A DNA stretch of 64,000 nucleotides from Patescibacteria group bacterium (GTDB lineage: Bacteria > Patescibacteriota > Patescibacteriia > Patescibacteriales > UBA12465), in NCBI GenBank assembly GCA_050949525.1, contig JBMNFW010000001.1, positions 335,890 through 399,889 on the forward strand, written 5' to 3'. Below, piece after piece: positions 38,228-53,893 of the stretch. A program made the position numbers and the translations under genes. The notes under the pieces are model-generated. The model had not been told where the DNA came from, searched no databases, and saw nothing but the letters and a program-made list of their open reading frames with translations. Position 1 is the stretch's first letter, and each line of letters begins with the position of its first letter.

Positions 38228-38232
38228 AATAT

Positions 38233-39117
38233 ATGGCTACTAAAGGTTTGGGTCGAGGACTAGACTCCTTGATTCCGAAAAAAATAAAGAATCAAAAGTA
38301 TGTAGACTTTGATTTAAAAGATGACAAAACATTGATTAGTGATGATAGATCAGAGAAGATTATTAAGGTTAATCCTCGAGATATTAAAACTAATCCTTAT
38401 CAACCACGGAAAGATTTTGATCCAATTGCTTTAAATGATTTAATTAACTCTATTAAAGAGCATGGTATTATTCAGCCCTTGATTGTTAGTAAGGTCGGGG
38501 ATGCTTATGAATTAGTGGCTGGAGAAAGAAGATTACGTAGTGCTTTAGAATTAGAGATGGATGAGGTTCCAGTTATTGTTAGAGATTTAGATGATCAGAA
38601 AAAGTTAGAGATTGCTTTAATTGAAAATTTACAACGAGAAAATTTAAATCCTATTGAATCAGCTATTGCTTATAATCAATTAATGAATGAGTTTAATTTA
38701 AGTCAAGAAGAATTATCAGAACGATTAGGGAAACCTCGTTCTAGTATTGCTAATGCTTTACGTTTTTTATCCTTGCCAGAAGAAATTAAAAATGCTTTAG
38801 CTAAAAGACAAATTACCGAATCTCATGCTAAATACCTATCAGGACTAGAAGGTTCAGTTAAGCAGTTAAATATTTTTAGGAAGATTATATATAATAATCT
38901 TTCAGTTCGAGAGACTAGTGATTTAATTAAAAAATCTGGTGGAACTAAAAAAGCTAAAGTTTTACCTCGAGAAGAGGATCAGCGTTATTTAAAGAATTTA
39001 GAAAATTATTTTGGCACTAAGATTGCTTTAAGGCGATCTGGAACCGGAGGAAAATTAGAGATTAGTTTTTATAATGATGAAGATTTAAAAGAGATAATGA
39101 GAAAGATTATTAAATAG
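38233..39117 (+). CDS. parB: Chromosome partitioning protein ParB/Spo0J
   Basis: GLGRGLDSLI, the ParB box GERRLRSA, and an HTH region. Confidence 0.9.
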   Translation: MATKGLGRGLDSLIPKKIKNQKYVDFDLKDDKTLISDDRSEKIIKVNPRDIKTNPYQPRKDFDPIALNDLINSIKEHGIIQPLIVSKVGDAYELVAGERRLRSALELEMDEVPVIVRDLDDQKKLEIALIENLQRENLNPIESAIAYNQLMNEFNLSQEELSERLGKPRSSIANALRFLSLPEEIKNALAKRQITESHAKYLSGLEGSVKQLNIFRKIIYNNLSVRETSDLIKKSGGTKKAKVLPREEDQRYLKNLENYFGTKIALRRSGTGGKLEISFYNDEDLKEIMRKIIK

Positions 39118-39134
39118 CTTATTGATATAAATAA

Positions 39135-39164
39135 AAAGAGACCGATTTTAAAGGTCTTTTTTCT
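39135..39164 (+). terminator. Rho-independent terminator after parB
   Basis: Stem AGAGACC / GGTCTTT followed by a T-run. Confidence 0.5.
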
Positions 39165-39200
39165 ATTGACAAAGATTTTAGTTTTTGTTAAAAAGGTTGG

Positions 39201-39213
39201 AGTTCTTTTAAAA
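39201..39213 (+). promoter_or_regulatory. Conserved leader box AGTTCTTTTAAAA
   Basis: TTGACA (39166), 17 nt, TAAAAA, then gAGTTCTTTTAAAA, then ttatagct (8 nt), then ATG 39222. Confidence 0.6.
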
Positions 39214-39221
39214 TTATAGCT

Positions 39222-39860
39222 ATGAAGAAAATAATCGATCGAAAAATTTTAATCTCTTGGGGAATAATTTCTCTAATTTGGGTCATTTTTAGATTAGTAA
39301 TAATCTATGTTTTGGGCCCGGAAGAGATTTCTCTAGTATCCCAAGATTATTTATCTTGGGTAGGATTACCAAATAAGGTAATCTTGCCAGGATGTTTTAT
39401 CATCCTGGACATACCATCCTTATTACTCCTAATGATTATTTTTAAAATATTCATTGGAGCTGCTAATAATGACTTTGTCAATATTAGCAGAAAAAAGAGA
39501 ATAATAGCTCTAGGTTCAGTAATGATTATTCCGTCTATAGTCGGAATAATTTTATACCTTTTTTTTGGTATTACAATGGCTATTATTATAGCTACAGGAC
39601 TAGCTGCTATAGCTGGCCTGATAATATCAATGAAAAAAAATGGAGGAATAAGATCCCTAGATTCTTATTTTCTCGCTATTGAACCTTGGACTATATTTAT
39701 GATATTCTTATTATTCGGTATAGGAATATCCGGAGGACTAAATATAAGTGCCCTATTAATAATCCTATTATTTATAGGATTAGGGATGCTATTTATTGCC
39801 TTTATGGCAATAATGGTAATAGTGTATATTGTAAAAAAAGTAATATTTTTTTTATTTTAA
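39222..39860 (+). CDS. Hypothetical multi-pass membrane protein
   Basis: Five or six hydrophobic helices, with a leader box upstream. Confidence 0.6.
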   Translation: MKKIIDRKILISWGIISLIWVIFRLVIIYVLGPEEISLVSQDYLSWVGLPNKVILPGCFIILDIPSLLLLMIIFKIFIGAANNDFVNISRKKRIIALGSVMIIPSIVGIILYLFFGITMAIIIATGLAAIAGLIISMKKNGGIRSLDSYFLAIEPWTIFMIFLLFGIGISGGLNISALLIILLFIGLGMLFIAFMAIMVIVYIVKKVIFFLF

Positions 39861-39939
39861 GTAAAATAGGGGGAGACAACAAGTCTTCCTTTTTTATTTT
39901 ATTTATATTATGATAGGGATGTAATTTTAATTTTTATTT

Positions 39940-42900
39940 ATGTCATTTGTTCATCTTCATAATCATACTCACTATTCATTGCTTGATGGCTTAACTAAAA
40001 TTGATGACTTAATTGCTAAGGCTAAATCTCAAAATTGCCCAGCTTTAGCTATCACTGATCACGGTAATATGTATGGAGTGATTGAGTTTTATCAAAAATG
40101 TTTAAAAGCTGGTATTAAGCCTATTATTGGAGTAGAAGCTTATTTAGCTCCTGGTTCTCGTTTTGACAAAGGCACTAGAGATGATGCTAGAAATTATTAT
40201 CATTTATTATTATTGGCTAAAAATAATACTGGTTATCAAAATTTAATTAAATTAGTCTCTAAATCTCATCTCGAGGGATTTTATTACAAACCTCGAATTG
40301 ATTGGGAGCTTCTAGAGGAGTTTTATGAGGGATTAATTGCATCTACTGCTTGTTTAGGGGGTGAAATTCCAGTTTTAATTCAATCTGGAAGATTAGATTT
40401 AGCTCGACAAAGAATTTTGGATTATAATCAGCTCTTTGGCGAAGGTAATTTCTATTTAGAGGTAATGGATCATCCTGAATTAGAAAATCAAGATATGGTA
40501 AATCAGCAATTAATTAAATTTTCTCAAGAATTAAATGTTCCTTTAGTCGCTACTAATGATATTCATTATTTAGATAAAGATGATGATGAGGCTCAAGATA
40601 TTTTACTTTGTCTTCAGAATAAAAAGAAAAGAAGCGATACTGATCGAATGCGAATGATGGGTTATGGCGATTATTCTTGTCGTGATCCTCAAGAAATTGT
40701 CGAAGCTTTTAAGGATACACCCTCAGCTATTTCTAATACTGTAAAAATTGCTGAAGCTTGTAATGTTGAGATAGATTTAAAGACAACTCATTTACCATAT
40801 TTTTCTGTTCCGGAAAGTTTTGATGAAAACTCATACCTAAGACATTTGTGTAGCTTAGGTATTGAGAGGAGATATGGAAAATCTAATGAAGAGATTGATA
40901 AGCGATTAGATTATGAGTTGGAGGTTATCGCTAAAATGGGTTGGCCATCATATTTTTTAATAGTAGCTGATTTAGTTAATTGGGCTAAAGATAATGGTAT
41001 TGTAGTTGGTCCAGGACGAGGTAGTGCAGCTGGGTCTTTAGTTTGTTATTTAACCAATATCACTAATGTTGATCCTTTGAAATATGAATTATTATTTGAA
41101 AGATTTTTAAACCCTGATCGAATTTCTATGCCTGATATTGATTTAGATTTTGCTGATACTCGTCGTGATGAAGTTATTAGATATGTAGCTCAAAAATATG
41201 GTGAAGATCATGTTTCTCAAATTATTACTTTCGGTACTATGGCGGCTCGAGCTGCTATTCGTGATGTAGGACGAGTTTTAGATGAACCTTATGATTATTG
41301 TGATAAACTAGCTAAGATGATTCCGTCTAATTATAAAATAAAAGATGCGATTGAGAATTTAAATGAGGTTAAAGAAATTTATGAAAGGGAAGTAGCGGCT
41401 CGAAAAATTTTAGATTTTGCTCAAAAATTAGAAGGAGTTTCTCGTCATGCTTCTACTCATGCTTGTGGAGTTTTAATTACTAAGGAACCTTTAACTAATT
41501 ATGTTCCATTACAATATGCTTCTTCTTCTGATCAAAGTATTATTTCTCAATACTCTTTAGGTCCAGTTGATGATTTAGGACTTTTGAAGGTTGACTTTTT
41601 AGGTTTAAAAAATTTAAGTGTTATTGAAGCTGCTATTAAGATTATAAAAAATACTCAGGGAGTAATTATTGATATTGAGAAAGTCCCCCTAGATGATGAG
41701 AAGACCTTAAATTTATTTAAAAAAGGTGAGACTACTGGAGTTTTTCAATTTGAATCCAGTGGTATGAAGCGTTATTTAAAAGAATTAAAACCTAGTGAAT
41801 TTGAGGATATTGTGGCTATGGTAGCTTTGTATCGTCCGGGTCCGATGGAGTGGATTCCTGATTTCATTTCTGGTAAACATGGTCGAAATATGAAATATTT
41901 ACATCCTAAATTAGAACCGATTTTGAGAAAAACCTATGGAGTAGCTGTTTATCAGGAGCAGGTAATGCAAATTTCTCGAGAATTGGCTGGTTTTAGTCGA
42001 GGTGAAGCTGATACTTTAAGGAAGGCGATGGGAAAGAAAATTCCAGAACTTTTAGCTGAACAAAAAGAAAAATTTATTAATGGTTGTGTTGCGAATGGTA
42101 TCGACCAAGTTTTAGCTGAAAAGGTTTTTTCTTTTATTGAGCCTTTTGCTGGTTATGGATTTAATCGCTCTCATGCTGTTTGTTATGCTTTAATTGGTTA
42201 TCAAACTGCTTATCTAAAAGCTAATTATCCAGTTGAGTTTATGGCTGCGTTATTAACCGCTGATCAAAATGATACAGATAGAATTGCGATTGAAATTGAA
42301 GAATGTCGTCAGATGGGGATTGAAATTAAGGCTCCGGATATTAATGAGTCGTTCGCTTCTTTTACCGTTTTAAAGGATAGTTCTAAACCAACTATTAGAT
42401 TTGGTTTGAAGGCTATAAAAAATGTGGGGGCTCATATTGTGGAAGAAATAATTGATGAACGTAAGAGGGGTGGATCTTTTTCTAATATATTTGATCTTTT
42501 GGAGCGAGTTAGTGATAAAGATTTAAATAAAAAGTCCTTAGAGAGTTTAATTAAAGCTGGAGCTTTGGATCAATTAGAGGATCGAGCTGTGTTGGTGGAT
42601 AATATTGAAGTTCTGTTAAATTTTAGTAAAGCTATTAAAAAAGATAAAGATAGTTCTCAGCTTAATCTTTTTGGCGAGGATGTTTTAGCTCCAGTTTATC
42701 CGTCATTAGAAAAAGATAAAGAATTAAATGATAAAGAAAAATTACAATGGGAGAAAGATTTATTAGGATTATATATTTCCGAGCATCCCTTTTCTTTTTT
42801 TCGTTCTCATTTATCTGATTTTTGTCTTCCATTAACTACTTTAAAAGATCATATTGGACAAGATATTTTTACAGCTGGAGTAATTTCTAGTATTAAAAAA

Positions 42901-43407
42901 ATTATTACCAAGAAAAATGAAAACATGCTTTTTGTAAAGATTGAAGATGGAATTTCTATGTTGGAGGTTCTAGTTTTTCCTAAAATTTTAAAAGAGCAGC
43001 CAGATCTTTGGCAAGAAGGACGAGTTGTATTATTGAACGCCAATGTTTCTGATAAAGATGGGGAGATTAAACTCTTGGTTAATAAAGCGATTAATTTAAA
43101 GGAGGAAGGCTTAGAATCAGATATAGAAGAATTTAAAAAAATTAAAATATCTTCTCGTAATAATTATCAAAAAAATAATCAAAGTTCGGCATCTTTAGGT
43201 ATAGTATTTAAGGAAAAAATTAATCCAGAAATTTTAGAACAATTAAAGAAATTTTTAGAAAAATATCCTGGCTCCAATTCCGTTTATTTTAAATTAAGTC
43301 TTGATCAAGGTGAGAGCATGATCAAATCTGATTTTAAAGTTAAACTTAATGAAACTTTAAAAGAAGATCTTCGAAAAAATTTTTCTGGAAATTTGGAGGT
43401 AGTTTAG
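39940..43407 (+). CDS. dnaE: DNA polymerase III alpha subunit
   Basis: N-terminal PHP domain FVHLHNHTHYSLLDG, palm/fingers motifs (PDIDLDF, GLLKVDFLGL) and an OB fold. Confidence 0.95.
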   Translation: MSFVHLHNHTHYSLLDGLTKIDDLIAKAKSQNCPALAITDHGNMYGVIEFYQKCLKAGIKPIIGVEAYLAPGSRFDKGTRDDARNYYHLLLLAKNNTGYQNLIKLVSKSHLEGFYYKPRIDWELLEEFYEGLIASTACLGGEIPVLIQSGRLDLARQRILDYNQLFGEGNFYLEVMDHPELENQDMVNQQLIKFSQELNVPLVATNDIHYLDKDDDEAQDILLCLQNKKKRSDTDRMRMMGYGDYSCRDPQEIVEAFKDTPSAISNTVKIAEACNVEIDLKTTHLPYFSVPESFDENSYLRHLCSLGIERRYGKSNEEIDKRLDYELEVIAKMGWPSYFLIVADLVNWAKDNGIVVGPGRGSAAGSLVCYLTNITNVDPLKYELLFERFLNPDRISMPDIDLDFADTRRDEVIRYVAQKYGEDHVSQIITFGTMAARAAIRDVGRVLDEPYDYCDKLAKMIPSNYKIKDAIENLNEVKEIYEREVAARKILDFAQKLEGVSRHASTHACGVLITKEPLTNYVPLQYASSSDQSIISQYSLGPVDDLGLLKVDFLGLKNLSVIEAAIKIIKNTQGVIIDIEKVPLDDEKTLNLFKKGETTGVFQFESSGMKRYLKELKPSEFEDIVAMVALYRPGPMEWIPDFISGKHGRNMKYLHPKLEPILRKTYGVAVYQEQVMQISRELAGFSRGEADTLRKAMGKKIPELLAEQKEKFINGCVANGIDQVLAEKVFSFIEPFAGYGFNRSHAVCYALIGYQTAYLKANYPVEFMAALLTADQNDTDRIAIEIEECRQMGIEIKAPDINESFASFTVLKDSSKPTIRFGLKAIKNVGAHIVEEIIDERKRGGSFSNIFDLLERVSDKDLNKKSLESLIKAGALDQLEDRAVLVDNIEVLLNFSKAIKKDKDSSQLNLFGEDVLAPVYPSLEKDKELNDKEKLQWEKDLLGLYISEHPFSFFRSHLSDFCLPLTTLKDHIGQDIFTAGVISSIKKIITKKNENMLFVKIEDGISMLEVLVFPKILKEQPDLWQEGRVVLLNANVSDKDGEIKLLVNKAINLKEEGLESDIEEFKKIKISSRNNYQKNNQSSASLGIVFKEKINPEILEQLKKFLEKYPGSNSVYFKLSLDQGESMIKSDFKVKLNETLKEDLRKNFSGNLEVV

Positions 43408-43417
43408 AAAATAAAAA

Positions 43418-43437
43418 AACCCTAAATTATTAGGGTT
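43418..43437. terminator. Bidirectional terminator hairpin
   Basis: Stem AACCCTAA / TTAGGGTT with a 4-nt loop, an A-run upstream and T-rich sequence downstream. It lies between convergent genes. Confidence 0.65.
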
Positions 43438-43443
43438 ATGTTT

Positions 43444-43899
43444 TTAAATCATATTTTCTTCAATTTTTGTTTCTCTAACTTCTCGGTATTTTAATTTTGC
43501 CGAAATAAAAAGAACAAAGATTCCAGAATAAATTAAAGGTAGTAATAGGATTTCGGAATTACCCGTTCCTATTACTCCGTTTTTAATGTATCCTGTTTGA
43601 TAGCCTATCATAGCGGCTATAAAGCAAAATACCGGAATAAATCTCATGAAGCCCACTTTTATTAAAAGTGATGCTCCATAAAAAAATATAAAAATGGCTG
43701 ATATATCAACATGGGAGTCTATCCCAGTGTTAATATTAGCAACTTTAGGACCTAGTGTGATCATAAGTCCTAATAGGATTAAAAATATTCCTTTTTGAAT
43801 TCTGATGGTTTTTTCATCAGAATTCAAATAAAAAAGAATAAAATCAAATACCACCACTATGGCGGTAGTTGATAAGATTGTAATGATTAAATTTGTCAT
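43444..43899 (-). CDS. Hypothetical multi-pass membrane protein
   Basis: Four or five hydrophobic helices, with a leader box upstream. Confidence 0.6.
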   Translation of the reverse strand: MTNLIITILSTTAIVVVFDFILFYLNSDEKTIRIQKGIFLILLGLMITLGPKVANINTGIDSHVDISAIFIFFYGASLLIKVGFMRFIPVFCFIAAMIGYQTGYIKNGVIGTGNSEILLLPLIYSGIFVLFISAKLKYREVRETKIEENMI

Positions 43900-43907
43900 A
43901 ATACAAT

Positions 43908-43920
43908 TTTTAAAGAACTA
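43908..43920 (-). promoter_or_regulatory. Conserved leader box TAGTTCTTTAAAA
   Basis: The minus strand reads TTAGTTCTTTAAAAATTGTATT then ATG. AGTTC to ATG is 20 nt. Confidence 0.6.
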
Positions 43921-43966
43921 AAGATGTTCAAAAGTCAATAGTTGAAGGTAATAATTGTAAAAATAC

Positions 43967-44007
43967 TTGACACACTACTTGACAGAATTATTTACATTTG
44001 ATAAAAT
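43967..44007 (+). promoter_or_regulatory. Promoter with a duplicated TACTTGACA box
   Basis: TACTTGACA occurs twice, 12 nt apart. The second TTGACA is followed by 17 nt and then TAAAAT, upstream of the XRE-Panacea gene. Confidence 0.55.
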
Positions 44008-44034
44008 AGAGGTACAATATTTATAAAAACAATT

Positions 44035-44808
44035 ATGTCTACATTTTTAAAAAAGCTTCGTCATAAGCAAAAAATTAGTCAAGAATTTTTAGCTAAAAAA
44101 ATAGGTGTTTCTCGTCCCACTTATTCACAAATTGAAAATGGCGAGCGAAAGATGCTTGTAGAAGAGGCTCAGAAATTAGCACGATTTTTTGGTTTATCTT
44201 TGGAGGACTTTCTTTCTGGTAAGGATATGCCAGTATTAAAGGTGGAATTGGAAAAATCAAAAAAGAAGAAACAAAAAAAGCAAGAAGTGCGTGTTTCTGT
44301 ACCTCAGGAAAAAGTAGAAAAGTTTAAAGAGGTATTTTTATATATTTTAGAAAGAATTGGCGCTCGGCCTAATATCGGTGAAGCGGTTATCTGTAAAATA
44401 ATGTATTTTATTGATTTTGATTTTTATGAAAAATTTGAAGAACAATTAGTTGGTGCTAAATATATCAAAAATCATTTTGGACCAACTCCTGTTGCTTTTC
44501 CTAAAATTGTCGCTCAAATGGAAAAAGATGGTGACTTAGTTCGGATTACTAAAAAATATTTTCAACATGAGCAGAAAAAATATTTACCACTGAGATCAGC
44601 TGATTTGTCTAATTTTTCAGCTCGAGAGAAGGATCTTATTGATTGGGAGATTGAGCGGTTTAAGGATTTTAATGCTAGTAAAATACGAGATTATTCCCAT
44701 AAAGATGTTCCTTGGATTGGGGCTGATAATTTACAGGAAATTGATTATGAAGCGGTTTTTTCTCGCACTGATGAATTTTCTGTAAGGCAATATGATGATA
44801 AAATATGA
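44035..44808 (+). CDS. XRE-HTH plus Panacea (DUF4065/SocA-like) domain antitoxin
   Basis: N-terminal HTH_XRE (ISQEFLAKKIGVSRPTYSQIENGER) and a Lys-rich linker. The C-terminal KIMYFIDFDFY...HFGPTPVAF is DUF4065-like. Confidence 0.7.
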   Translation: MSTFLKKLRHKQKISQEFLAKKIGVSRPTYSQIENGERKMLVEEAQKLARFFGLSLEDFLSGKDMPVLKVELEKSKKKKQKKQEVRVSVPQEKVEKFKEVFLYILERIGARPNIGEAVICKIMYFIDFDFYEKFEEQLVGAKYIKNHFGPTPVAFPKIVAQMEKDGDLVRITKKYFQHEQKKYLPLRSADLSNFSAREKDLIDWEIERFKDFNASKIRDYSHKDVPWIGADNLQEIDYEAVFSRTDEFSVRQYDDKI

Positions 44809-45163
44809 CGAAACAGAAGAATTTAAGCGTGATTTTAAGAAACTGCTAAAAAGATTTCCAACTTTAGTAGATGATTTTAATATAAATAAAAAATATAGAA
44901 TTAATCTTTTTCATTGTAAAAAGATTGACAGTAAAAGTATTTTTGAAATTCAGGGAGCTGGCAATACGGATGAATTAAGGTTTTTTAAAGTTAAAAAATT
45001 TCAATGTAAAAGTTTAAAGGGGCGCGGAGCAAAAAGCGGTATTCGTGTCATTTATGCTTATTTACCAATGATCCATAAAATTATATTTTTAGAAATTTAT
45101 TTTAAATCAGATCAGGAAAATGAGACAAAAAAGAGGATAATTGATTTTATGAGAGATAGGTAA
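44795..45163 (+). CDS. RelE/ParE-superfamily-like toxin
   Basis: Small basic protein overlapping the antitoxin 3' end. It has FKRDFKKL and GIRVIYAY...IIFLEIYFKSDQEN, typical of the RelE-like fold. Confidence 0.55.
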   Translation: MIKYDETEEFKRDFKKLLKRFPTLVDDFNINKKYRINLFHCKKIDSKSIFEIQGAGNTDELRFFKVKKFQCKSLKGRGAKSGIRVIYAYLPMIHKIIFLEIYFKSDQENETKKRIIDFMRDR

Positions 45164-45194
45164 TATTAAATAGAGTGATAAGGATAAACGATAG

Positions 45195-45218
45195 AACTGG
45201 CTTAAAACCAGTTTTTTA
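45195..45218 (+). terminator. Rho-independent terminator after the TA pair
   Basis: Stem AACTGG / CCAGTT with a 7-nt loop, followed by TTTTTAT. Confidence 0.6.
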
Positions 45219-45279
45219 TTTGGAGTTTATACAAATTTGTGATAAATTAAATATGAAGAATTTATAAATAAATTTGTGT

Positions 45280-46275
45280 ATGACAAGATCACAAAATACA
45301 AATTTACACAGAGCTAGAGATAGAAAGAATGATGAGTTTTATACTCAGCTTTCAGACATTGAAAAAGAATTAAAGTATTATAAAGATCATTTTAGGGGGA
45401 AAATTATTTATTGTAATGCCGATGATCCTTTTGAGAGTAATTTTTTTAAATATTTTGCCTCTAACTTTAATAATCTCGGTTTAAAAAAACTTATTACCAC
45501 AAGTTATGCTGGCTCCCCAGTTGTTGGTGAGCAATTACCTTTATTTGAGGTGGCAGGCCTTAAAAAAGCTAAAATTAAGGAGCCGATGAAGATTGAAATT
45601 AACGAAGTTAAGGATCTTAATAAAGATGGAGCTACAAGTATTATTGATGTTGAGTTACTTTTAAGAAATAATAAAAATATAACCACTCCTCTTAAGGGTG
45701 ATGGAGATTTTCGTAGTGAGGAATGTATAAAATTATTAAAAGAGGCTGACATTATTGTTACTAATCCACCTTTTAGTTTGTTTAGGGAATATGTTGCACA
45801 GTTAATGGAATATAAGAAAAAATTTTTAATAATAGGAAATAAAAATGCTATAACTTATAAAGAGTTTTTTCCATTACTAAAAGATAATAAGGTTTGGATA
45901 GGTTATAATAATGTAAAAGAATTTAAACAACCTAATGGAGTATTAAAAAAATTTGGAAATGTTGGGTGGTATACCAATCTTGATATTAAAAAACGACACG
46001 AGGAATTGATACTTTATAAAAAATATAATTCAAAAGAGTATCCAAAATATGATAATTATGATGCAATTAATGTTGATAAGGTGAATAATATACCTTCGGA
46101 TTATGATGGAGTTATGGGTGTTCCTATAACATTTATGGATAAATATAATCCCAATCAATTTGAGATAGTGTCGTTTAGAAAGGGTAGTGATGGAAAAGAT
46201 TTGGTATTTACGAGAGAGAGAGAGAGAGTTCAACCATACTTTCGTATCCTTGTACGACGGCAATTCCGGGATTAA
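45280..46275 (+). CDS. N6-adenine DNA methyltransferase, M.EcoRI family
   Basis: NDEFYTQ near the N-terminus, catalytic motif IVTNPPFSLFREY, YDGVMGVPITFMDKYNP, and C-terminal FRKGSDGKDL...PYFRILVRR. The start is taken at ATG 45280. Confidence 0.85.
   Translation: MTRSQNTNLHRARDRKNDEFYTQLSDIEKELKYYKDHFRGKIIYCNADDPFESNFFKYFASNFNNLGLKKLITTSYAGSPVVGEQLPLFEVAGLKKAKIKEPMKIEINEVKDLNKDGATSIIDVELLLRNNKNITTPLKGDGDFRSEECIKLLKEADIIVTNPPFSLFREYVAQLMEYKKKFLIIGNKNAITYKEFFPLLKDNKVWIGYNNVKEFKQPNGVLKKFGNVGWYTNLDIKKRHEELILYKKYNSKEYPKYDNYDAINVDKVNNIPSDYDGVMGVPITFMDKYNPNQFEIVSFRKGSDGKDLVFTRERERVQPYFRILVRRQFRD
46212..46228 (+). repeat. (GA)8 dinucleotide tract inside the methyltransferase CDS
   Basis: GAGAGAGAGAGAGAGAG encodes RERER, 16 codons before the stop. 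Confidence 0.95.
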
Positions 46276-46492
46276 TAAAAAACGCAGAAGGAAAAGTGAA
46301 TGGCAGAATTACTTATGCTCGAATAACTATAAGAAACAAAAAATTAAGGAACCAATAGATTATTTTTTCCCAAATGTTACTAATTTAGCCAACACTTTAG
46401 TGAATGATTGTACTATTAATGGTAAAAAAACTTATGTAAGGGTGTTGATAAGAAAAAAAGACAAAAAACATGTTAACTTTATTTTTAAATAA
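46229..46492 (+). other. Two alternative out-of-frame C-terminal extensions of the methyltransferase
   Basis: Frame 3 (read after loss of 2 nt, one GA unit, from the tract) is open to 46358 and ends ...GKVNGRITYARITIRNKKLRNQ*. Frame 2 (read after gain of 2 nt, one GA unit; track ORF 46187-46492) ends ...INGKKTYVRVLIRKKDKKHVNFIFK*. Confidence 0.6.
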
Positions 46493-46500
46493 AAAATCAT

Positions 46501-47586
46501 ATGAAAATTGAATTAAAAGAAATTATGATTCGTGAATTAGCTGACGGATTTCAAGATAATGCCGAAGATGGTGTTATTGGCTATGGTGGCAGACTTGATA
46601 TTCGTCCGCCATATCAAAGAGAGTTTATTTATAAAGATAAACAAAGGGATGCTGTTATTGATACTATCACTAAAAAATTTCCACTTAATGTAATGTATTG
46701 GGCGGTGCGAGAAGATGGAAATTTTGAGATTATTGATGGACAACAACGCACAATTTCAATTTGTCAGTATGTCAAAGGTGATTTTTCAATTAATGGCTTA
46801 GCTTTTCATAATTTAACAAATGATAAACAAGAGCAAATTTTAAATTATAAACTTACCGTTTATCAATGTAGTGGAACAGACAGCGAAAAATTAGATTGGT
46901 TTAGAACTATAAATATTGCTGGTGAAAAGTTAACTGATCAAGAATTACGCAATGCTGTTTATTCTGGTTCTTGGGTAACTGATGCAAAGCGATATTTTAG
47001 TAAAACTGGGTGCGTTGCTTATCAAATAGGGAGTGACTATTTAAGTGGTACACCAATTCGTCAAGATTATTTAGAGACAGCTATTAAGTGGATTTCTGAT
47101 AATAAAATAGAAGACTATATGTCCGATCATCAACATGATCAAAATGCTGCTGCCTTGTGGCGATATTTTCAAGATGTAATAACTTGGATAGAAACTACTT
47201 TTGTCAAGAAAAGGACAAAATTTATGCGTAGCGTTGACTGGGGTGCTCTCTATAATGTTTATAAAGATGAAAAATATGATACAAAGAAAATTGAGGAGGA
47301 AACGGTTAAATTAATACTTGATGATGATGTCACAAAAAAGAGCGGTATTTATCCATATATCTTAACTCGTGATGAAAAATATCTTTCTATTCGCTCCTTT
47401 TCTGATGCTACGAAACAAGAAGTTTATGAGGAGCAAAAAGGTATTTGTGTAAAATGTAAGAAGAAATTTGAGCTAGAAGAAATGGAGGCTGATCATATAA
47501 CTCCTTGGCATGAAGGAGGGAAGACAATAAAGGAAAATTGTCAGTTATTATGTAAAAATTGTAATAGACGAAAGTCTGGTAAATAA
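46501..47586 (+). CDS. DUF262 (ParB/GmrSD-N-like) plus HNH endonuclease
   Basis: DUF262 motifs RPPYQREFIY and IIDGQQRT. The C-terminal HNH is ADHITPWHEGGKTIKENCQLLCKNCNRRKS. Confidence 0.8.
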   Translation: MKIELKEIMIRELADGFQDNAEDGVIGYGGRLDIRPPYQREFIYKDKQRDAVIDTITKKFPLNVMYWAVREDGNFEIIDGQQRTISICQYVKGDFSINGLAFHNLTNDKQEQILNYKLTVYQCSGTDSEKLDWFRTINIAGEKLTDQELRNAVYSGSWVTDAKRYFSKTGCVAYQIGSDYLSGTPIRQDYLETAIKWISDNKIEDYMSDHQHDQNAAALWRYFQDVITWIETTFVKKRTKFMRSVDWGALYNVYKDEKYDTKKIEEETVKLILDDDVTKKSGIYPYILTRDEKYLSIRSFSDATKQEVYEEQKGICVKCKKKFELEEMEADHITPWHEGGKTIKENCQLLCKNCNRRKSGK

Positions 47587-47981
47587 AAGTGTTATAATTT
47601 TATATAAAACTATTCATTTAAATAAACCTAGATATATTTTGAAAATAAAGGTTGTTACGATTATTTATAAAGAAAAAAGGAAGAATTTTTTTTCAATAAA
47701 AAAGAGGTGATTAAGTATTTTTAATAAGTTAAGTTTTTTTAAGTCAATTTTAAATAGATTTATGGCGTAATAATAGCATTAACTTATTTTTTATAGAATA
47801 AAATTATTAAGCTAAAGATATAATTAATATATGATAAACTCTTGGGAAATTTTTAAGTCTATTCTTAAGAGAAATTAAGATTTGAATTAGAATTTAAGAA
47901 GTATTAAAAATATTAATCCCTTGTTTTTTATCCTTGAAAATGTTAATATTTTGTTATAATAATATTAATTAAAATAATCGT

Positions 47982-49310
47982 ATGCCTTTAAACAACCCTC
48001 CTATTAAACCTAATCCTTCAAAAAATAAAGAAGATCTAGAAGCTATAAAAGAAGGTTTAGAAAATATGCAATCTCAATCAGCGCCGGATAATTTTTCTGA
48101 CCATGAAGACCTAGATTCTAAAAAAGAATTTTTTTGCTTAATGTCCGAAAAAATAAAAGAAGATCCTAGTGAGCCTGATCTAGAGCAAGTTAAGAGTGTA
48201 TCTGATTCTCGATTATCATTTTATCGAAAGGTAGTTGGTAAATTTTCTTTTTTAGTTTTAATTCTTCTTCTCCTTCTAGCTTATTTATCTCTAGGAAAAG
48301 TTAAAATTACAGTTTCTAGTGATCGAGAAACTATTAAAGATAGCTTGAATTTTTATACTTATAGTGATAATGGTCAATTCAATTTAGATCGAGCTATAAA
48401 AGCTAATATTAATACTGTTGAATTAGAAACAGAGATGACTTTTGAGAGTAGTGAAGAAGAGAAACAGGGTGGAGAGATTGTTGGGAAAGTTAAAATTATT
48501 AATGAGCATACTAAAAATCAACCTTTAGTAGCTACCACTAGATTACTTAGTCCTAATGATGAATTGTTTCGGATAAAAAATACTGTTAATGTTCCTGCTG
48601 GCGGGTCAGTGGAAGTTGAAATTTATGCTGATGAAGATGATCCTAAATTAGCCTTAGGACCGAGCACTTTTACTATTCCTGGTTTATGGGCTGGTTTACA
48701 GGATAAAATTTATGCTGTTAGCTCGGAAGCTTTTGAGTTTAAGACTGAGGTTAAGCGTGTAGTTTCTAGTCAGGATATAGTTAAAGCTCAAACTGCTTTA
48801 CGAGAAGAAATTTTAAAAATAGCTCAAGAAAATAATCCTAGCCAGAAGGGAATTAAAAATATCTATAATCTAGATTCAGAAAATTCTAGTATAAAAATTG
48901 GGGCTAATATTGATGATGAAGTTGAAGAGTTTAAAGGTAATATTAAAGCTCGGATTAATATTATTAGTATTAATCTTGATGATTTATTAAAAATTATTAA
49001 ACAAAGATTAGCTATTCTAGACTTTGATCAAAATTTATCTGAAGTTGATACTGAGACCTTAGAGTTTGAATTATTAAATTTTAATAGTGAAAAAACTTTA
49101 GCTGAGTTTCAGGTTAATTTTATCGCTTATACCAGATCTAAAGAGCGTGGTATGCTTAATAAAAAACACTTAGTAAGTTTAAATGAAAAGCAAATTAAAG
49201 CTTACTTAGATGGTATAGATAATTTAAAATCATATGAACTAGAATTTTGGCCTAGCTTTATTAAAAGAGCTCCAATGTTATCTAGTCGTATTGATATAAT
49301 TTATGAATAA
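47982..49310 (+). CDS. Hypothetical membrane-anchored protein
   Basis: An acidic, disordered N-terminus, one TM helix (FSFLVLILLLLLAYLSL) and a large C-terminal domain. An extended -10 TGTTATAAT lies upstream. Confidence 0.55.
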   Translation: MPLNNPPIKPNPSKNKEDLEAIKEGLENMQSQSAPDNFSDHEDLDSKKEFFCLMSEKIKEDPSEPDLEQVKSVSDSRLSFYRKVVGKFSFLVLILLLLLAYLSLGKVKITVSSDRETIKDSLNFYTYSDNGQFNLDRAIKANINTVELETEMTFESSEEEKQGGEIVGKVKIINEHTKNQPLVATTRLLSPNDELFRIKNTVNVPAGGSVEVEIYADEDDPKLALGPSTFTIPGLWAGLQDKIYAVSSEAFEFKTEVKRVVSSQDIVKAQTALREEILKIAQENNPSQKGIKNIYNLDSENSSIKIGANIDDEVEEFKGNIKARINIISINLDDLLKIIKQRLAILDFDQNLSEVDTETLEFELLNFNSEKTLAEFQVNFIAYTRSKERGMLNKKHLVSLNEKQIKAYLDGIDNLKSYELEFWPSFIKRAPMLSSRIDIIYE

Positions 49311-49782
49311 TATGAAAAATTTTGAAACTATAGTAACAAATACTCATCCTGATTTAGAAAAAGTTTGTTCTGCTAAATCAAGACCAGTAATTAATGCTAT
49401 TACTGAGGATCGTAATAATTATCGCGTTAATACTCCTCGAGTTATTAGTAAATTAGAAAAATCTATTTCTGAAGCACTTGATAATCTAAAATTAGAGGAC
49501 ACCGAAGAAAATCGAGATAGGATATCTAATCAAATCCTTAAACGAGCTATTGAGGCGATAGCTATTGATCAGGCGATGGGTAAGATTTCATCTTTCTCTA
49601 ATTTAGAAGATACCTATTTAGATATATTAGAAGGGGAAATATTGAATCGGCCTGATATTAAAGATTTAGTATCTGATTTCAGTGATTTAATTAAATTAAT
49701 TGACGAGGTCGATGAAAAAGAAATTTTAGACAAAGATAGCCGTTCTCGTTTAATTGATAAATTATCTTCAGAGCTTTTTTAG
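49303..49782 (+). CDS. Hypothetical acidic protein
   Basis: ORF overlapping the upstream gene by 8 nt. I recognise no family. Confidence 0.45.
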   Translation: MNNMKNFETIVTNTHPDLEKVCSAKSRPVINAITEDRNNYRVNTPRVISKLEKSISEALDNLKLEDTEENRDRISNQILKRAIEAIAIDQAMGKISSFSNLEDTYLDILEGEILNRPDIKDLVSDFSDLIKLIDEVDEKEILDKDSRSRLIDKLSSELF

Positions 49783-49788
49783 CTTTTT

Positions 49789-50484
49789 ATGAGTAGTAAA
49801 TTAAAAGATTTAGAAAAAACTCTTTTGAAAAATAGGGACGAGTCTCAGGCTAAAATTTTAGCTCGATATTTTCAAACTGGACCGGGTCAATATGGTCAGG
49901 GCGATGTTTTTCTTGGAATAAGTGTCGCTCAACAAAGAGCTATTGTAAAAAATTTTTTTGATTTAAGTTTAATTGATTTAGAATCCTTATTAAAATCCAA
50001 GATTCATGAATTTCGTTTTACCGCTCTTTTAATAATGATTAATCAGTATCAGTCGGGAGAGAAGAAAATTGTTAAATTATATCTAAAAAATTTAAAATAT
50101 ATTAATAATTGGGATTTGGTAGATCTAAGTGCTCATCAAATTTTAGGGCCCCATTTTTTTAAAATTAATCGTCGTCCTTTAGAAGATTTGGCTTTAAATG
50201 ATAATCATTGGATTCGTCGTATCGCTATAATTACTACTTATTATTTTATCAAACGGGGAGATTTTAAGACTACTTTTAAAATAGCTTCTAAGCTTTTTAA
50301 GGATGACTTTTTCTTAAATCATAAAGCCCTAGCTTGGATGTTAAGGGAAGTTGGAAATCGAGATGAGGCTAGTTTGATTAAATTTTTAGAGGATAATAAA
50401 ACTAAGATGTCACGATTAAGCTTAAGAATTGCTACTCAAAAATTATCGGACAGTAAAAGAAAAAAGTTTTTAAAAAATGACTAA
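49789..50484 (+). CDS. DNA alkylation repair protein (AlkD/AlkC-like HEAT repeat)
   Basis: ARYFQTGPGQYGQGDVFLGI, NNWDLVD, WIRRIAI and LAWMLREVG match the DNA_alkylation family pattern. Confidence 0.75.
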   Translation: MSSKLKDLEKTLLKNRDESQAKILARYFQTGPGQYGQGDVFLGISVAQQRAIVKNFFDLSLIDLESLLKSKIHEFRFTALLIMINQYQSGEKKIVKLYLKNLKYINNWDLVDLSAHQILGPHFFKINRRPLEDLALNDNHWIRRIAIITTYYFIKRGDFKTTFKIASKLFKDDFFLNHKALAWMLREVGNRDEASLIKFLEDNKTKMSRLSLRIATQKLSDSKRKKFLKND

Positions 50485-51025
50485 ACAGATTGACAATTTA
50501 AAAAGAAAGATAATTCATTTAACTTCCGCTTTTATTATTTGTTTATTTCCTTATTTTTTTAATCTTCGTTTAATAATTATTATTTGTCTAGTCTTTTCAT
50601 TAATTTTTCTTTTAGCTCGATATTATAATTTTCTTTATATTATTAATAAAGTTAAACGTTATTCTTGGGGAGAAGTGTTTTATCCTTTAGGTATTGCTTT
50701 ATCAGCTATTATTTTTCTCCCTGATAATGTTTTAGCCTTTCAATTTGGTGTTTTAGTTTTAGGTGTATCTGATTTTTTAGCTAATATTATTGGCGATCTA
50801 TTTGGTAAACATCGAGTGGAGTTTTTGAAAGGAGCTAAAAGTTTAGAAGGTTCTTTGGCCTTTATTTTATCAACTTTGATTCTTTTTTCACTTTTTGGTC
50901 AAAGCTCTTCCTGGCTTATTCTTCCTTTTAGTTTTCTTTTAGCGGTAGTCGAATTTATACTTTTTTTTGGTTTAGATAATCTGTGTTTACCAGCTTTAGC
51001 AGCCTATCTTTTTACTTTAATATAA
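50477..51025 (+). CDS. CTP-dependent polyprenol/diacylglycerol kinase or CdsA-family membrane protein
   Basis: Multi-TM protein with VSDFLANIIGDLFGKHR...KSLEGSLAF, a CTP_transf_1/dolichol-kinase-like motif. Confidence 0.55.
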   Translation: MTKQIDNLKRKIIHLTSAFIICLFPYFFNLRLIIIICLVFSLIFLLARYYNFLYIINKVKRYSWGEVFYPLGIALSAIIFLPDNVLAFQFGVLVLGVSDFLANIIGDLFGKHRVEFLKGAKSLEGSLAFILSTLILFSLFGQSSSWLILPFSFLLAVVEFILFFGLDNLCLPALAAYLFTLI

Positions 51026-51038
51026 TTAAAATAAAATT

Positions 51039-51788
51039 ATGTCAAAAAAATTAGAACCCCATATTTTATGTGGTCCTGGAGATATTGCTCCTAATGTTAT
51101 TATACCGGGAGATCCAGGGCGAGTTTTACGAGTTTCTAAACTTCTCGATAGTGGAAAAGAAATATCTTTTAATCGTGAGTATCGTGTTTTTACTGGAAAG
51201 TATAAAGGTTGTCCAGTTACTATTTGTTCTAGTGGTATTGGTGGACCTTCAACTGCTATTGCGATGGAGGAGTTAATTAATCTAGGAGCTAAGAATTTTA
51301 TTCGACTAGGTTCTTGTGGAGCTAATCAAGCTAAAATCAAAGTTGGGGATTTAATAATTTCTGATAGTGTGGTACGGGCTGATCATACTAGTTTAGATTA
51401 TGTTCCTTTATCTTATCCAGCTATTACTGATCCAGATATTTTTCAAGCTTTAAAAATGGCTAGCTCAGAATTGAAATTAAAATATTATTGTGGCCCCACT
51501 GTTAGTGTGGATGCACTTTACTCTCCTCATATAAAAGAAACTAAGAATTTTTGGTTAAAATTTGGTACCTTAGCTCAAGATATGGAAGCTGGAACAGTGC
51601 TAACTTTAGCTCGAGTAAAAGGAGTTCGAGCTGGGGTTATTCTTTTAGTGGTGGATCGAGAAGCGGAAAAGGATGTTAAAGAAAAAATTGCTCAATATTC
51701 AGTTGAGGCTAAGAAAGGTCGGGGACCTTTAGTTAAATTAGAATCTCAGGCTGCTCAAGCCGCTCTCGAAGCTTTCTTAAAATTATGA
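51039..51788 (+). CDS. Nucleoside phosphorylase (PNP/UDP-1 family)
   Basis: GDPGR, SSGIGGPS, LGSCG and DMEA motifs of the DeoD/Udp/MtnP-like hexameric family. Confidence 0.75.
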   Translation: MSKKLEPHILCGPGDIAPNVIIPGDPGRVLRVSKLLDSGKEISFNREYRVFTGKYKGCPVTICSSGIGGPSTAIAMEELINLGAKNFIRLGSCGANQAKIKVGDLIISDSVVRADHTSLDYVPLSYPAITDPDIFQALKMASSELKLKYYCGPTVSVDALYSPHIKETKNFWLKFGTLAQDMEAGTVLTLARVKGVRAGVILLVVDREAEKDVKEKIAQYSVEAKKGRGPLVKLESQAAQAALEAFLKL

Positions 51789-52399
51789 GTGAAAAATATC
51801 AGGGAACTAAGTTTGAAACCGTTTATTGCGGCGAATTTAAACCCACTAAAAAAGAAATTTTCTTAATTGATAAATTGATTGAGGTGGGTAAAGAGTTGGC
51901 TCAATTAGGTTGTCAGGATAAGAATGGTGGAAATTTTAGTGTTAGAACTAAAGAGGCTATGATTATTAAAACTACTGGATCTTGGCCAGATAGATTAACC
52001 AGAGAAGATTTTGTTTTAGTTAGTGGTTTTAAGAAGAATCAAGTTTTTGTTAAAGGAAATCAGGAGCCCAGCTCTGAGGCTCGTCTTCATTGGGGTGCTT
52101 ATGAAGTTCGTTCGGATATTAATTGTCTTCTACATAGTCATGATTTTTTAGTTATAAATAGTTCAACAAGATTGAGAGATATTGGGTATATAAAAAACTA
52201 TCCCTATGGAACTATGGAATTAGCTCGAGCTGTTAAAAGATCAGCTAAAAAATGGGACTATATTATTATGAAAGATCATGGCGTTTTGTCTTTAGGTAAA
52301 GATATTAAGACAGCTTTTAAATTAATTAAAAAATATCATGAGAAGTTTAAAACAATTACAGAAGAAACTACCACTAAGTGTAGAGCTAAAAAAGAATAG
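51785..52399 (+). CDS. Class II aldolase/adducin-family protein
   Basis: GGNFSVR, EPSSEARLH and LLHSHD, the metal-binding His pattern of class II aldolases. Confidence 0.7.
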   Translation: MSEKYQGTKFETVYCGEFKPTKKEIFLIDKLIEVGKELAQLGCQDKNGGNFSVRTKEAMIIKTTGSWPDRLTREDFVLVSGFKKNQVFVKGNQEPSSEARLHWGAYEVRSDINCLLHSHDFLVINSSTRLRDIGYIKNYPYGTMELARAVKRSAKKWDYIIMKDHGVLSLGKDIKTAFKLIKKYHEKFKTITEETTTKCRAKKE

Positions 52400-53435
52400 T
52401 GTTAAAATTATTGATCAGGTTCAATTACCTGATCGTTTAAGGCTTTTAAATTTAAAAACCTATTCTGAGGCTATTAAAGCTATTAAAGAGTTTAATGTGC
52501 GTGGAGCTCAAGCTTTAGGTTCGGTTGGGGGTGGAGGATTATTCTTAGCTTCTCGGGCTTACAAAAAAAGTGATGTTGAAGATTTTAAAAAGTATTTAAA
52601 TCGAGTTGCTGAGGAGATTAATCAAGCTCGTCCCACAGCTAATAATCTTTCTTGGACGCTTAATTATTTAATGGAAAGAATAAAATCTAAAACTGTTTCA
52701 GGTATTAAGAATGATATTTATCGAAACTTAGATCAACTTTTAAAAAGTGAGATGAATAATAATTTTAAGATAGGGGCTCATGGTCAAAAATTAATTAAGA
52801 GTGGTTATAGAATTTTGACTCATTGTAATGCAGGTTCATTATCAGCTATTTGGTATGGTACGGCCACCGCTCCAATTTATAGCGCTTATTTAAAGGGAAA
52901 AAATATTTCAGTTTTAATTGATGAAACTCGTCCTTGGTTACAAGGTTCTCGTTTAACAGCTTGGGAAATGAAACAGGCTGGTATTCCATATCAGATTAAT
53001 ATTGATAGTGCCTCTGGCTTTTTAATGGCTAATGATTTAGTGGATATGGTGATAGTGGGTGCTGATCGTATTGCTTTGAATGGTGATACGGCTAATAAAA
53101 TTGGGACTTTTCCTTTAGCATTAATGGCTAAAAGATATAAGATACCTTTTTATGTAGCGGCTGTTAAAGCTACTATTGATTTTAGTATCAAAAATGGTTC
53201 AGCGATAAAAATAGAAGAACGTTCTGGAGCTGAAGTTTTGAAACATACTTCTTTTTGGGAAAATAGAAACTTATCTAAAAATCAAAGCGATAAATTTGAT
53301 CCTTTATTAGAAATTGCTCCTAAAGGTTCCAAAGCTTTTAATCCTGTTTTTGATGTTACCCCTGCTGATCTTATTACTGGCATTATTACTGAAGATGGTA
53401 TTAGTAAGCCGAGTGAGATTAAGAAATTAAAATGA
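52338..53435 (+). CDS. eIF-2B-family sugar-phosphate isomerase (MtnA, or ribose-1,5-bisphosphate isomerase-like)
   Basis: IIDQVQLP, VRGAQALG, THCNAGSL, VGADRIALNGDTANKIGT and FDVTPADLITGIITE. Confidence 0.8.
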   Translation: MRSLKQLQKKLPLSVELKKNSVKIIDQVQLPDRLRLLNLKTYSEAIKAIKEFNVRGAQALGSVGGGGLFLASRAYKKSDVEDFKKYLNRVAEEINQARPTANNLSWTLNYLMERIKSKTVSGIKNDIYRNLDQLLKSEMNNNFKIGAHGQKLIKSGYRILTHCNAGSLSAIWYGTATAPIYSAYLKGKNISVLIDETRPWLQGSRLTAWEMKQAGIPYQINIDSASGFLMANDLVDMVIVGADRIALNGDTANKIGTFPLALMAKRYKIPFYVAAVKATIDFSIKNGSAIKIEERSGAEVLKHTSFWENRNLSKNQSDKFDPLLEIAPKGSKAFNPVFDVTPADLITGIITEDGISKPSEIKKLK

Positions 53436-53893
53436 GAAAAATAAGTATTATAAGTTTAACGTCTTCTAAAAAAGATGCTTATCAAGATTTAGTTAAGGAA
53501 TATCAAAAAAGATTAAAACCTCACCTTGATTTAGAGTTAATTGAAATTCCGGCTTTAAGTTTTTCTTCAACTAATATTTCTGAAATTAAACGAAAAGAAA
53601 CTTTGAAAGTTTTAAAATTATTAGAGAAGAGAAGTGAGGCTGATATTTTTATTCTTTCTGAAGAGGGGGTTGAGTTAGATTCGGTTTCTTTTTCTCGTCA
53701 GATATTTAGCGATACTAAGCCCTTAGTTTTTATTATTGCTGGATCTTTAGGTTTTGATTTTTCACTTCTTAAGGCTTATCCTCGTTTATCATTATCTAAA
53801 ATGACATTTTTACACGACATGGCTCGATTAATACTTATAGAGCAGATTTATCGTGCTTGGGCTATAGAACGAGGAAAAACTTATCATTATTAA
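53432..53893 (+). CDS. rlmH: 23S rRNA (pseudouridine1915-N3)-methyltransferase RlmH
   Basis: SPOUT C-terminus: IIAGSLGF...LSLSKMTFLHDMARLILIEQIYRA...YHY. Confidence 0.85.
   Translation: MRKISIISLTSSKKDAYQDLVKEYQKRLKPHLDLELIEIPALSFSSTNISEIKRKETLKVLKLLEKRSEADIFILSEEGVELDSVSFSRQIFSDTKPLVFIIAGSLGFDFSLLKAYPRLSLSKMTFLHDMARLILIEQIYRAWAIERGKTYHY

Follow-up and report, generated by a model that had tools for sequence, protein, structure and literature searches.

How can a mutable switch be placed inside a DNA methyltransferase gene when the partner is a nuclease and loss of the methylase would be lethal? The question is raised by a locus in a 64,000-nt stretch of the Patescibacteria contig JBMNFW010000001.1 (hereafter the window, to whose positions all coordinates refer; GC 30.7%), in which the gene for an EcoRI-family N6-adenine methyltransferase (45280-46275, + strand; 331 residues as sequenced) carries a (GA)8G tract (46212-46228, + strand) near its 3' end and is followed by the gene for a 361-residue DUF262 + HNH nuclease (46501-47586, + strand), a candidate restriction partner of the methylase. 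We examined this locus by profile searches against Pfam, NCBIfam and PADLOC, by AlphaFold (AF2) models, by Foldseek comparisons with the PDB and by full-text searches of the literature. The answer that we reach is that slipped-strand mispairing would add or remove GA units and so shift translation among three frames, every one of which would end in its own version of the family C-terminus; three complete methylase isoforms could thus be made from the gene, there would be no OFF state, and the placement problem would be solved. That the methylase should never be off is understandable because its partner is a nuclease, beside which an OFF frame would be unaffordable. A toxin-antitoxin pair lies just upstream, and the whole probably represents two independent modules side by side, the toxin-antitoxin pair and a restriction-modification cassette with a three-way, never-off methylase switch.

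The repeat and the three methylase tails

The methylase matched the Pfam family EcoRI_methylase (PF13651) with an E-value of 1e-130 (436 bits, positions 1-305 of 345 covered by the current form) and the PADLOC Type II profile MTase_II over positions 5-328 of 332, and the catalytic NPPF motif is found at residues 162-165 (TNPPFS, 161-166). An earlier note on this DNA had described the gene as a switchable m6A methyltransferase, and the PF13651 match and the (GA)8G repeat bear this out. The sequence is identical to that of database protein P0121, and the start is most likely ATG 45280, as in P0121, rather than TTG 45274. When an AlphaFold model of the current form (predicted local distance difference test, pLDDT, 77; predicted template modelling score, pTM, 0.75) was searched with Foldseek against the PDB, the matches were weak and to generic class I methyltransferases only, and a sequence search found no EcoRI-family structure in the PDB.

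The (GA)8G tract is the sole dinucleotide repeat of at least six units in the 64 kb. It encodes an Arg-Glu surface loop directly before the last beta-strand of the methylase, and in the model of the current form this loop (residues 308-319, pLDDT <50) lies between a strand at 294-301 and a confidently predicted last strand at 321-327. As sequenced, the gene is in phase A and reads ...GKDLVFT-RERER-VQPYFRILVRRQFRD to the stop codon; this tail A (46229-46275, + strand, 16 codons) supplies the last beta-strand directly, closing the hairpin, and the resulting form matches repeat-less relatives that end in FRKGDDGKDLxINGKxPYFRILI (L034, L045, L080). One GA unit fewer would lead into tail C (46224-46358, + strand, 44 codons), which ends in ...SSTILSYPCTTAIPGLIKNAEGKVNGRITYARITIRNKKLRNQ and gives a protein of 360 residues counted from TTG 45274, with its stop 142 nt before the nuclease ATG. 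One GA unit more would lead into tail B (46223-46492, + strand, 89 codons), which ends in ...TLVNDCTINGKKTYVRVLIRKKDKKHVNFIFK and gives 406 residues counted from the same TTG, with its stop 8 nt before the nuclease ATG. Each of the three tails ends in the family C-terminal motif x-I-N-G-K-x-x-Y-x-R-I-x-I, and in tails B and C a linker of 25-70 residues leads to a strand-turn-strand unit that belongs to the tail itself. Both alternatives cover the Pfam model from end to end (1-345 of 345; 447 bits with tail C and 444 bits with tail B), and this full-model match, together with the PADLOC coverage of the current form to position 328 of 332, makes all three forms look complete. The two alternative frames are open for 87 and 42 codons, which was matched in none of 20,000 shuffles of the region. 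The 225 nt from the methylase stop to the nuclease start (46276-46500), which look like a spacer, instead hold a pair of additional C-terminal ends for the methylase, one in each of the frames that are not in use.

Near the end of tail B there is also a run of A residues (46453-46459), which is A7 in the window. The nearest relative, L010, has A8 there (at about 325-332), and with the additional A tail B stops 25 nt rather than 8 nt ahead of the nuclease ATG; this run may be a second, minor slippery site within the tail region.

Our wider set of repeat-bearing genes comprised 118 methylase 3' ends, taken from a metagenome scan and from genome loci and forming 37 clusters at 80% nucleotide identity. 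The tracts at these loci were 11-53 nt long; the C-terminal motif stood near the stop in all three frames at 100 of the 118 and in two frames at another 17, and the frame in use was productive at 113. The repeat-less control methylase ends behaved quite differently, three productive tails being found at only one of 58, while 54 of the 58 had no off-frame motif, and the median off-frame open reading frame was 10 codons in these controls versus 44 in the repeat-bearing loci. Within groups of loci whose 300-nt flanks were at least 98% identical, tracts ranged from 15 to 47 nt, all three tails were in use, and the tail in use tracked tract length modulo 6. Of the 100 loci with three good tails, 25 were using the longest, 53 the one of middle length and 22 the shortest. 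L010, whose nuclease is 96% identical to that of the window, has a (GA)7G tract of 15 nt and reads tail C, compared to 17 nt and tail A in the window. Programmed ribosomal frameshifting as a means of reaching the tails was considered and rejected, there being no slippery heptamer and the tracts differing in length from contig to contig in the DNA itself. An origin of the tract variation in sequencing errors was likewise rejected, as the differences are up to 30 nt and predict the tail that is in frame.

The tails themselves are conserved. Many database proteins at 54-66% identity to the window methylase have been called in frame B, with the text ...TREREREFNxTFVSLYD...RR.NQWE.YL...INGKKTYVRILI, and we attribute the conservation of this frame-B text to the fact that the same DNA also encodes, in different frames, tails A and C. 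The tail C motif IPGxIKNAEGKINGKITYARITI is conserved across lineages, and the motifs IPGxIKNAEG, NNPKDT and (mostly) VNDC are confined to switch-type genes. In addition, the same methylase position is occupied, again with alternative tails, by tracts of other composition: poly-G in Fibrobacter intestinalis ATCC 43854 (L020) and in L015, (GACA)10 in L070, (CAGC)8 in L062, (GAAGA)10 in L022 and (GAGAA)12 in Riemerella columbina DSM 16469 (L066), next to (GA)6 and (GA)12 in Schaalia (L018) and Pauljensenia (L041), respectively. That six different repeat units are found at one site speaks for selection on frame switching as such. Interrupted or replaced tracts also occur (TGGADVQ, TTERERE, TRDEERE and NLGCKC, among proteins P0127, P0135, P0140 and P0230), and in these the gene is locked in tail B or C.

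The methylase-nuclease cassette

The DUF262 + HNH architecture that had been proposed for the nuclease was confirmed by Pfam matches to GmrSD_N (PF03235; 7e-18, residues 34-154) and HNH (PF01844; 6.5e-14), the C-terminal matches being to HNH, HNH_5 and Endonuclease_7. The ParB-like DUF262 domain has the DGQQR motif, and the HNH domain has a DH...N...N motif and two CxxC pairs (zinc-finger cysteines). The protein also matched the PADLOC Type II restriction endonuclease profile REase_II PDLC03418 over its full length (1-372 of 372; 3.6e-132), the Type II label being that of database curation. In its ParB-like N-terminal DUF262 domain with DGQQR, fused to a His-Me finger nuclease, it resembles GmrSD, BrxU and SspE. 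Those enzymes have a DUF1524 domain and need no partner to act on DNA that is modified or phosphorothioate-marked (PMC4619093, PMC12707154), whereas the protein described here, of about 360 residues, has a canonical HNH domain and is co-inherited with a methylase; no DUF1524 match was found in Pfam at E-values of 0.1 or less. The analogy to GmrSD and Type IV enzymes drawn in the earlier note therefore fails, the C-terminal domain being a canonical HNH rather than DUF1524 and the methylase partner being conserved. With the EcoRI system the locus shares a methylase that is a clear PF13651 member and the logic of a methylase with a nuclease, and it differs in that the partner is DUF262 + HNH rather than the PD-(D/E)xK endonuclease of EcoRI and that GAATTC is not depleted: 17 sites, including those at 263, 2196 and 6809, versus 20.5 expected in the window, as the earlier note had judged by eye.

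Our searches identified more than 8000 homologs of the nuclease, the best 120 of which were 80-99% identical and came from Magasanikbacteria, Pacebacteria, Peribacteria, Falkowbacteria and Bacteroidales. For two nuclease homologs we found an EcoRI-family methylase (354-359 residues) directly upstream, 2-5 nt away, in nine out of nine places, the surroundings being unrelated. In a sample of 80 loci from species-representative genomes, chosen solely by methylase peptide patterns, a full-length nuclease homolog was present in 64, usually right after the methylase, and the nuclease was present at 105 of the 118 repeat-bearing methylase loci. The order of methylase then nuclease is kept in unrelated contexts, the two genes overlapping or being 1-5 nt apart, and the cassette is found on plasmids of Aeromonas, Macrococcoides, Sulfitobacter, Gordonia, Variovorax, Mammaliicoccus, Ruania and Ligilactobacillus as well as in a few phage records. 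The methylase occurred without the nuclease at 16 of the 80 loci, some of them on truncated contigs, and a nuclease without a methylase was not seen among 10 nuclease-centred metagenome and assembly loci; such an asymmetry would be expected if, as we infer, the nuclease is dangerous without its methylase. The contig with the most similar nuclease (L216, 99% identical) begins inside the nuclease gene and carries no repeat. Conservation is higher in the DUF262 domain of the nuclease than in the methylase (median identities of 68% and 55%, respectively, to the window proteins), which is a hint only. Far from the unusual pairing it had first seemed, the arrangement is a conserved and standard one, as the counts from these three sets (9 of 9, 64 of 80 and 105 of 118) and the plasmids make clear. 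Of the two roles that the earlier note had offered for the nuclease, that of restriction partner to the methylase is the one favored by co-inheritance and by the Type II profile, and the two genes appear to form a widespread, mobile, two-gene, Type II-like restriction-modification cassette.

The cassette varies in its make-up. An extra gene encoding 212-338 residues with no recognized domain lies between methylase and nuclease in L106, L126, L157, L169 and L210, and in L001-L005 the cassette has genes with helix-turn-helix (HTH) and T5orf172 domains upstream and a 600-residue EMARD_N protein downstream; these inserted and flanking genes may be accessory components. L094 has a methylase-nuclease gap of 285 nt and no inserted gene. 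In L114 a second methylase gene (705-1670) follows the repeat-bearing copy in place of the nuclease, and P0122 (632 residues) is a tandem fusion of two complete EcoRI-family methylase copies.

What would change between phases

A change of phase would alter two things, the C-terminal loop or module of the methylase and the position of the methylase stop, the longest tail alone ending beside the nuclease start. The reading that we prefer, and hold tentatively, gives weight to the first: the isoforms would differ in how or where DNA is methylated, and the nuclease would tolerate or follow the change. More tentatively still, we speculate that the repeat is a three-position selector that exchanges a DNA-recognition-proximal C-terminal module of a methylase that is on at every position, and that the highly conserved DUF262-HNH nuclease either has its target set by the methylase or is gated through it. 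In L085, L062, L070 and L018 the alternative tails specify the complete last subdomain anew, beginning with CNG(I/V)MGVPITFLDKYNPxQFEI, and all three tails, with long tracts too, are kept in five of the seven nuclease-less loci that have enough downstream DNA; the latter suggests that the isoforms matter in their own right and that the switch does more than set the nuclease dose, though the nuclease may have been lost recently.

Control of nuclease dose is nonetheless a possible, if doubtful, function of the switch, which we rank close behind isoform-specific methylation. Here the isoforms would be equivalent fail-safes: in the longest-tail phase, translation would be coupled to the nuclease start and restriction would be high, and in the other phases restriction would be low while methylation continued. 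The geometry fits well, as in most of the 105 nuclease-bearing loci the stop of the longest tail falls between -4 and +9 nt relative to the nuclease ATG, frequently as an ATGA-type overlap, and the two shorter tails stop 50-230 nt upstream of it (8, 142 and 225 nt in the window for tails B, C and A); where an extra gene is inserted before the nuclease, it is this inserted gene that the longest tail adjoins, and the repeat-less cassettes have gaps of 1-5 nt. A dose switch would also account for the need to keep methylase function through every frameshift. However, such a geometry would result wherever three tails are nested compactly, many of the nuclease genes have their own Shine-Dalgarno-like AGGAG, a fold of 46400-46540 revealed no RNA structure around the nuclease start of the window beyond that of shuffled sequences (z 0.27), and restriction could be varied more simply by a repeat placed inside the nuclease gene. 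Nor would dose control explain why nuclease-less loci retain three tails and long tracts, why some alternative tails re-encode a distinct, whole C-terminal module rather than a minimal strand, or why the tail C motif is so highly conserved.

The remaining explanations we consider unlikely. The extra tails could be fossils of recombination between methylase alleles, the repeat being neutral or mildly harmful and only the frame in use being of importance; the resemblance of the tails to family C-termini, the interrupted, locked tracts of P0127, P0135 and P0140 and the loss of at least one tail at 18 of the 118 loci would all suit such a history, which we nevertheless regard as improbable, because in 37 lineages, whether the genome is rich in AT or in GC, the frames remain open over 40-137 codons, against a control median of 10, because all three frames are in use among near-identical contigs, and because tracts reach 53 nt and six different repeat units have come to occupy the same position. 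Equally improbable in our view is the other role offered in the earlier note, in which the DUF262-HNH protein is an independent, modification-dependent Type IV nuclease of the GmrSD/BrxU kind and its methylase neighbor is unrelated to it. Its N-terminal domain does match Pfam GmrSD_N, there are weak matches to a PADLOC Type IV profile (3e-4), and on a Chryseobacterium taklimakanense plasmid (NZ_CP034172.1; L217, 1358-2500) an unannotated EcoRI-family methylase gene is broken across three frames while the DUF262-HNH gene downstream is intact; set against this are the tight and wide co-inheritance of the two genes, which overlap or nearly touch, the full-length Type II endonuclease match, the HNH domain in place of DUF1524, and the occurrence of methylases alone at 16 of 80 loci compared to no nuclease alone at 10 nuclease-centred loci. 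Least likely of all is a classical ON/OFF phasevarion with one frame ON and two OFF, as in Type III mod genes. A repeat tract inside a methyltransferase open reading frame is just what such a system has, and the (AG)n tracts of mycoplasma Type III mod genes work in this way (PMC3498834), but an ON/OFF gene would leave a large share of loci out of frame, whereas 113 of 118 are productive in the frame used, a methylase that is OFF beside an active nuclease would be self-destructive, and both alternative isoforms outscore the current form in Pfam.

Several points weigh against our preferred reading of isoforms that differ in methylation, and against the breadth that we give to the switch. The pattern used in the metagenome scan required tail A next to a GA tract, so that tail A, unlike tails B and C, is present by construction and repeat-bearing genes are enriched, and many of the metagenome contigs come from few lineages. 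At 18 of the 118 loci there are only one or two good tails, and at five the frame in use is non-productive. We infer the activity of all three isoforms from conservation alone. The plasmid locus L217 may be a pseudogene beside a live nuclease, or an assembly error; if real, its two frameshifts argue against a strict dependence of the nuclease host on the methylase. Finally, we found no convincing avoidance of any palindrome in the 64 kb (GTAC 0.71, CAATTG 0.47, TAATTA 0.74; all |z| <= 3), and as no palindrome is clearly avoided in the window, no target site can be inferred from it.

Among known systems, the phasevarions of Type III mod and Type I hsdM/hsdS genes are similar in having a repeat in a methylase or specificity gene, slippage of its length, and heritable, reversible subpopulations, and mycoplasma mod genes make use of (AG)n tracts (PMC3498834; bioRxiv 10.64898/2026.04.01.715767); they differ in being ON/OFF, or full-length versus truncated, whereas here the cassette is Type II-like, the repeat is at the extreme 3' end, and three complete forms are predicted. 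In the Type I system NgoAV, a poly-G switch in hsdS truncates a specificity subunit that is separate from the methylase, which gives two states, and hsdS shufflons use recombinases and spare gene copies. In these, too, a hypermutable element swaps the C-terminal part of the component that recognizes DNA while the system stays active, and they thus provide a functional analogy for our preferred reading, with the differences that here one and the same stretch of DNA holds the three ends, each in its own frame, and that the change of specificity is our proposal. The (TA)n Type II methyltransferase DCM8/DAM3 of Metamycoplasma hominis was presented by its authors as the first Type II phase-varion (PMC10305163). 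It likewise has a dinucleotide repeat in a Type II methylase, there in the target-recognition region, and tract variation inside strains, but its off-frames run into stop codons and the protein is fragmented, and it has neither productive alternative tails nor a DUF262-HNH partner. C-terminal sequence switching by repeats near the 3' ends of genes has been described in Helicobacter canadensis (PMC2823697), and there also the repeat alters the C-terminal peptide rather than abolishing the protein; the ends in that case are short and without recognizable conserved function, whereas here each end rebuilds the same conserved element, and does so across phyla. A 2026 review gives Type II systems only "limited representation" (PMC13076061). 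In a full-text search, which was non-exhaustive and did not take in REBASE or subscription journals, we found no description of the cassette or of a three-tail methylase. Based on these comparisons, both the toxin-antitoxin pair and the cassette are of known kinds, and what appears to be new is the set of three productive, conserved outcomes, each predicted to rebuild the same structural element.

The Type II-like cassette in which the three-outcome tract sits is common in uncultured Patescibacteria and Saccharibacteria, in rumen and gut bacteria and on plasmids, and the locus provides a clean natural example of selection on coding in three frames at once. Annotation pipelines will call such genes truncated or frameshifted and their tails spacers; the annotation of the window itself stops the methylase at tail A. 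Were the selector reading true, the cassette would change the specificity or strength of restriction-modification by slippage, and would be a compact, recombinase-free counterpart of the Type I hsdS shufflons across many phyla, including Patescibacteria and gut bacteria. For organisms with tiny genomes the locus may offer a route to epigenetic or defense heterogeneity. Cultured strains that carry the switch-type gene are Riemerella columbina DSM 16469 with (GAGAA)12, Fibrobacter intestinalis ATCC 43854 with G10 and Schaalia turicensis UMB0250 with (GA)6.

The toxin-antitoxin pair and the surroundings

Upstream of the cassette, the gene for the 257-residue antitoxin (44035-44808, + strand) overlaps by 17 nt the gene for the 123-residue toxin candidate (44792-45163, + strand). 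The antitoxin had been read as an XRE-type HTH joined to a DUF4065/Panacea domain, and both domains were matched in Pfam (HTH_3, 7e-17, residues 5-59; SocA_Panacea PF13274, 8e-16, residues 120-227), so that all four families named for profile searches in the earlier note, PF13651, PF03235, PF01844 and PF13274, were found. The RelE/ParE-like character claimed for the toxin found moderate backing at the level of profiles but none in a curated family match of the protein itself. The protein has about 930 homologs, mostly in Patescibacteria; a profile of its close homologs matched the RelE/ParE-fold toxin HigB-2 (1.6e-3), a 60-sequence profile from an exhaustive search matched HigB-2 (PDB 5ja9) at 7.8e-5 over about 49 C-terminal residues, and 4 of 60 remote relatives reached Pfam RelE PF06296 at about 1e-3. 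An AlphaFold model from a shallow alignment (pLDDT 49) has the topology HH-EEEE-H, compatible with the RelE/ParE fold. Counting against the assignment, the protein had no match at all in Pfam, NCBIfam or PADLOC, missing every curated family threshold, and the model was too poor for a fold search, sequence profiles being used in its place. A RelE-like toxin, closest to HigB-2 and PF06296, is thus a plausible prediction. The toxin profile also matched residues 3217-3329, the extreme C-terminus, of the 3334-residue protein P0439 (6.6e-19), which suggests that the same domain tips a giant protein resembling polymorphic toxins.

The pair is an ordinary example of the PanAT kind already described. 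Hundreds of Panacea antitoxins have N-terminal HTH domains, and ParE is among the partner toxins (Kurata et al., PMC8832971). As in PanAT and HigBA-2, the gene of an HTH + Panacea antitoxin lies upstream of, and overlaps, a small toxin gene, and the toxin profile matches HigB-2; unlike in those systems, the present toxin family lacks a curated model, and its fold and activity are predictions. The antitoxin probably binds and neutralizes the toxin and represses its own operon. An HTH-Panacea protein with a neighbor of 123-124 residues, encoded by overlapping genes, occurs in other Patescibacteria contexts without the restriction cassette (L211-L215), where the pair adjoins a ribonucleotide reductase or a histidine kinase and restriction genes are absent. 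Since it recurs alone in other genomes, we regard the pair as an independent module. A consensus scan found a strong promoter-like site (TTGACA-17-TAAAAT with TG, 11 of 12 matches; 43979-44007, + strand) upstream of the antitoxin gene, and a motif scan found a terminator-like hairpin with a T-run (45193-45215, + strand) between the toxin and methylase genes, which would make the pair and the cassette separate transcription units. The description of the four genes as one compact island was thus overstated, given that the pair has its own promoter-like site and terminator-like hairpin and recurs without the cassette.

The four + strand open reading frames are present at the coordinates first reported for them. 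They had been placed between dnaE (39940-43407) and an AT-rich gap, and the gap is there, 395 nt long (47587-47981) with a GC fraction of about 0.20-0.25 after the nuclease gene; dnaE, however, is not the direct neighbor, as it is followed by a bidirectional terminator-like hairpin and by a minus-strand open reading frame for a multi-pass membrane protein of 151 residues (43444-43899), located between dnaE and the antitoxin gene. This protein had a weak, below-threshold match to DUF2705 (3.5e-4). No flanking direct repeats were found at the borders of the island, an Rfam scan gave no matches, and the nearest tRNA gene is at 36232. A compositional break at the island was not seen, and it is therefore not visibly foreign in base composition. 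Over 38000-54000 the GC skew is positive throughout and the cumulative skew climbs steadily, with nearly all genes on the + strand, among them a ParB-like gene at 38233-39117.

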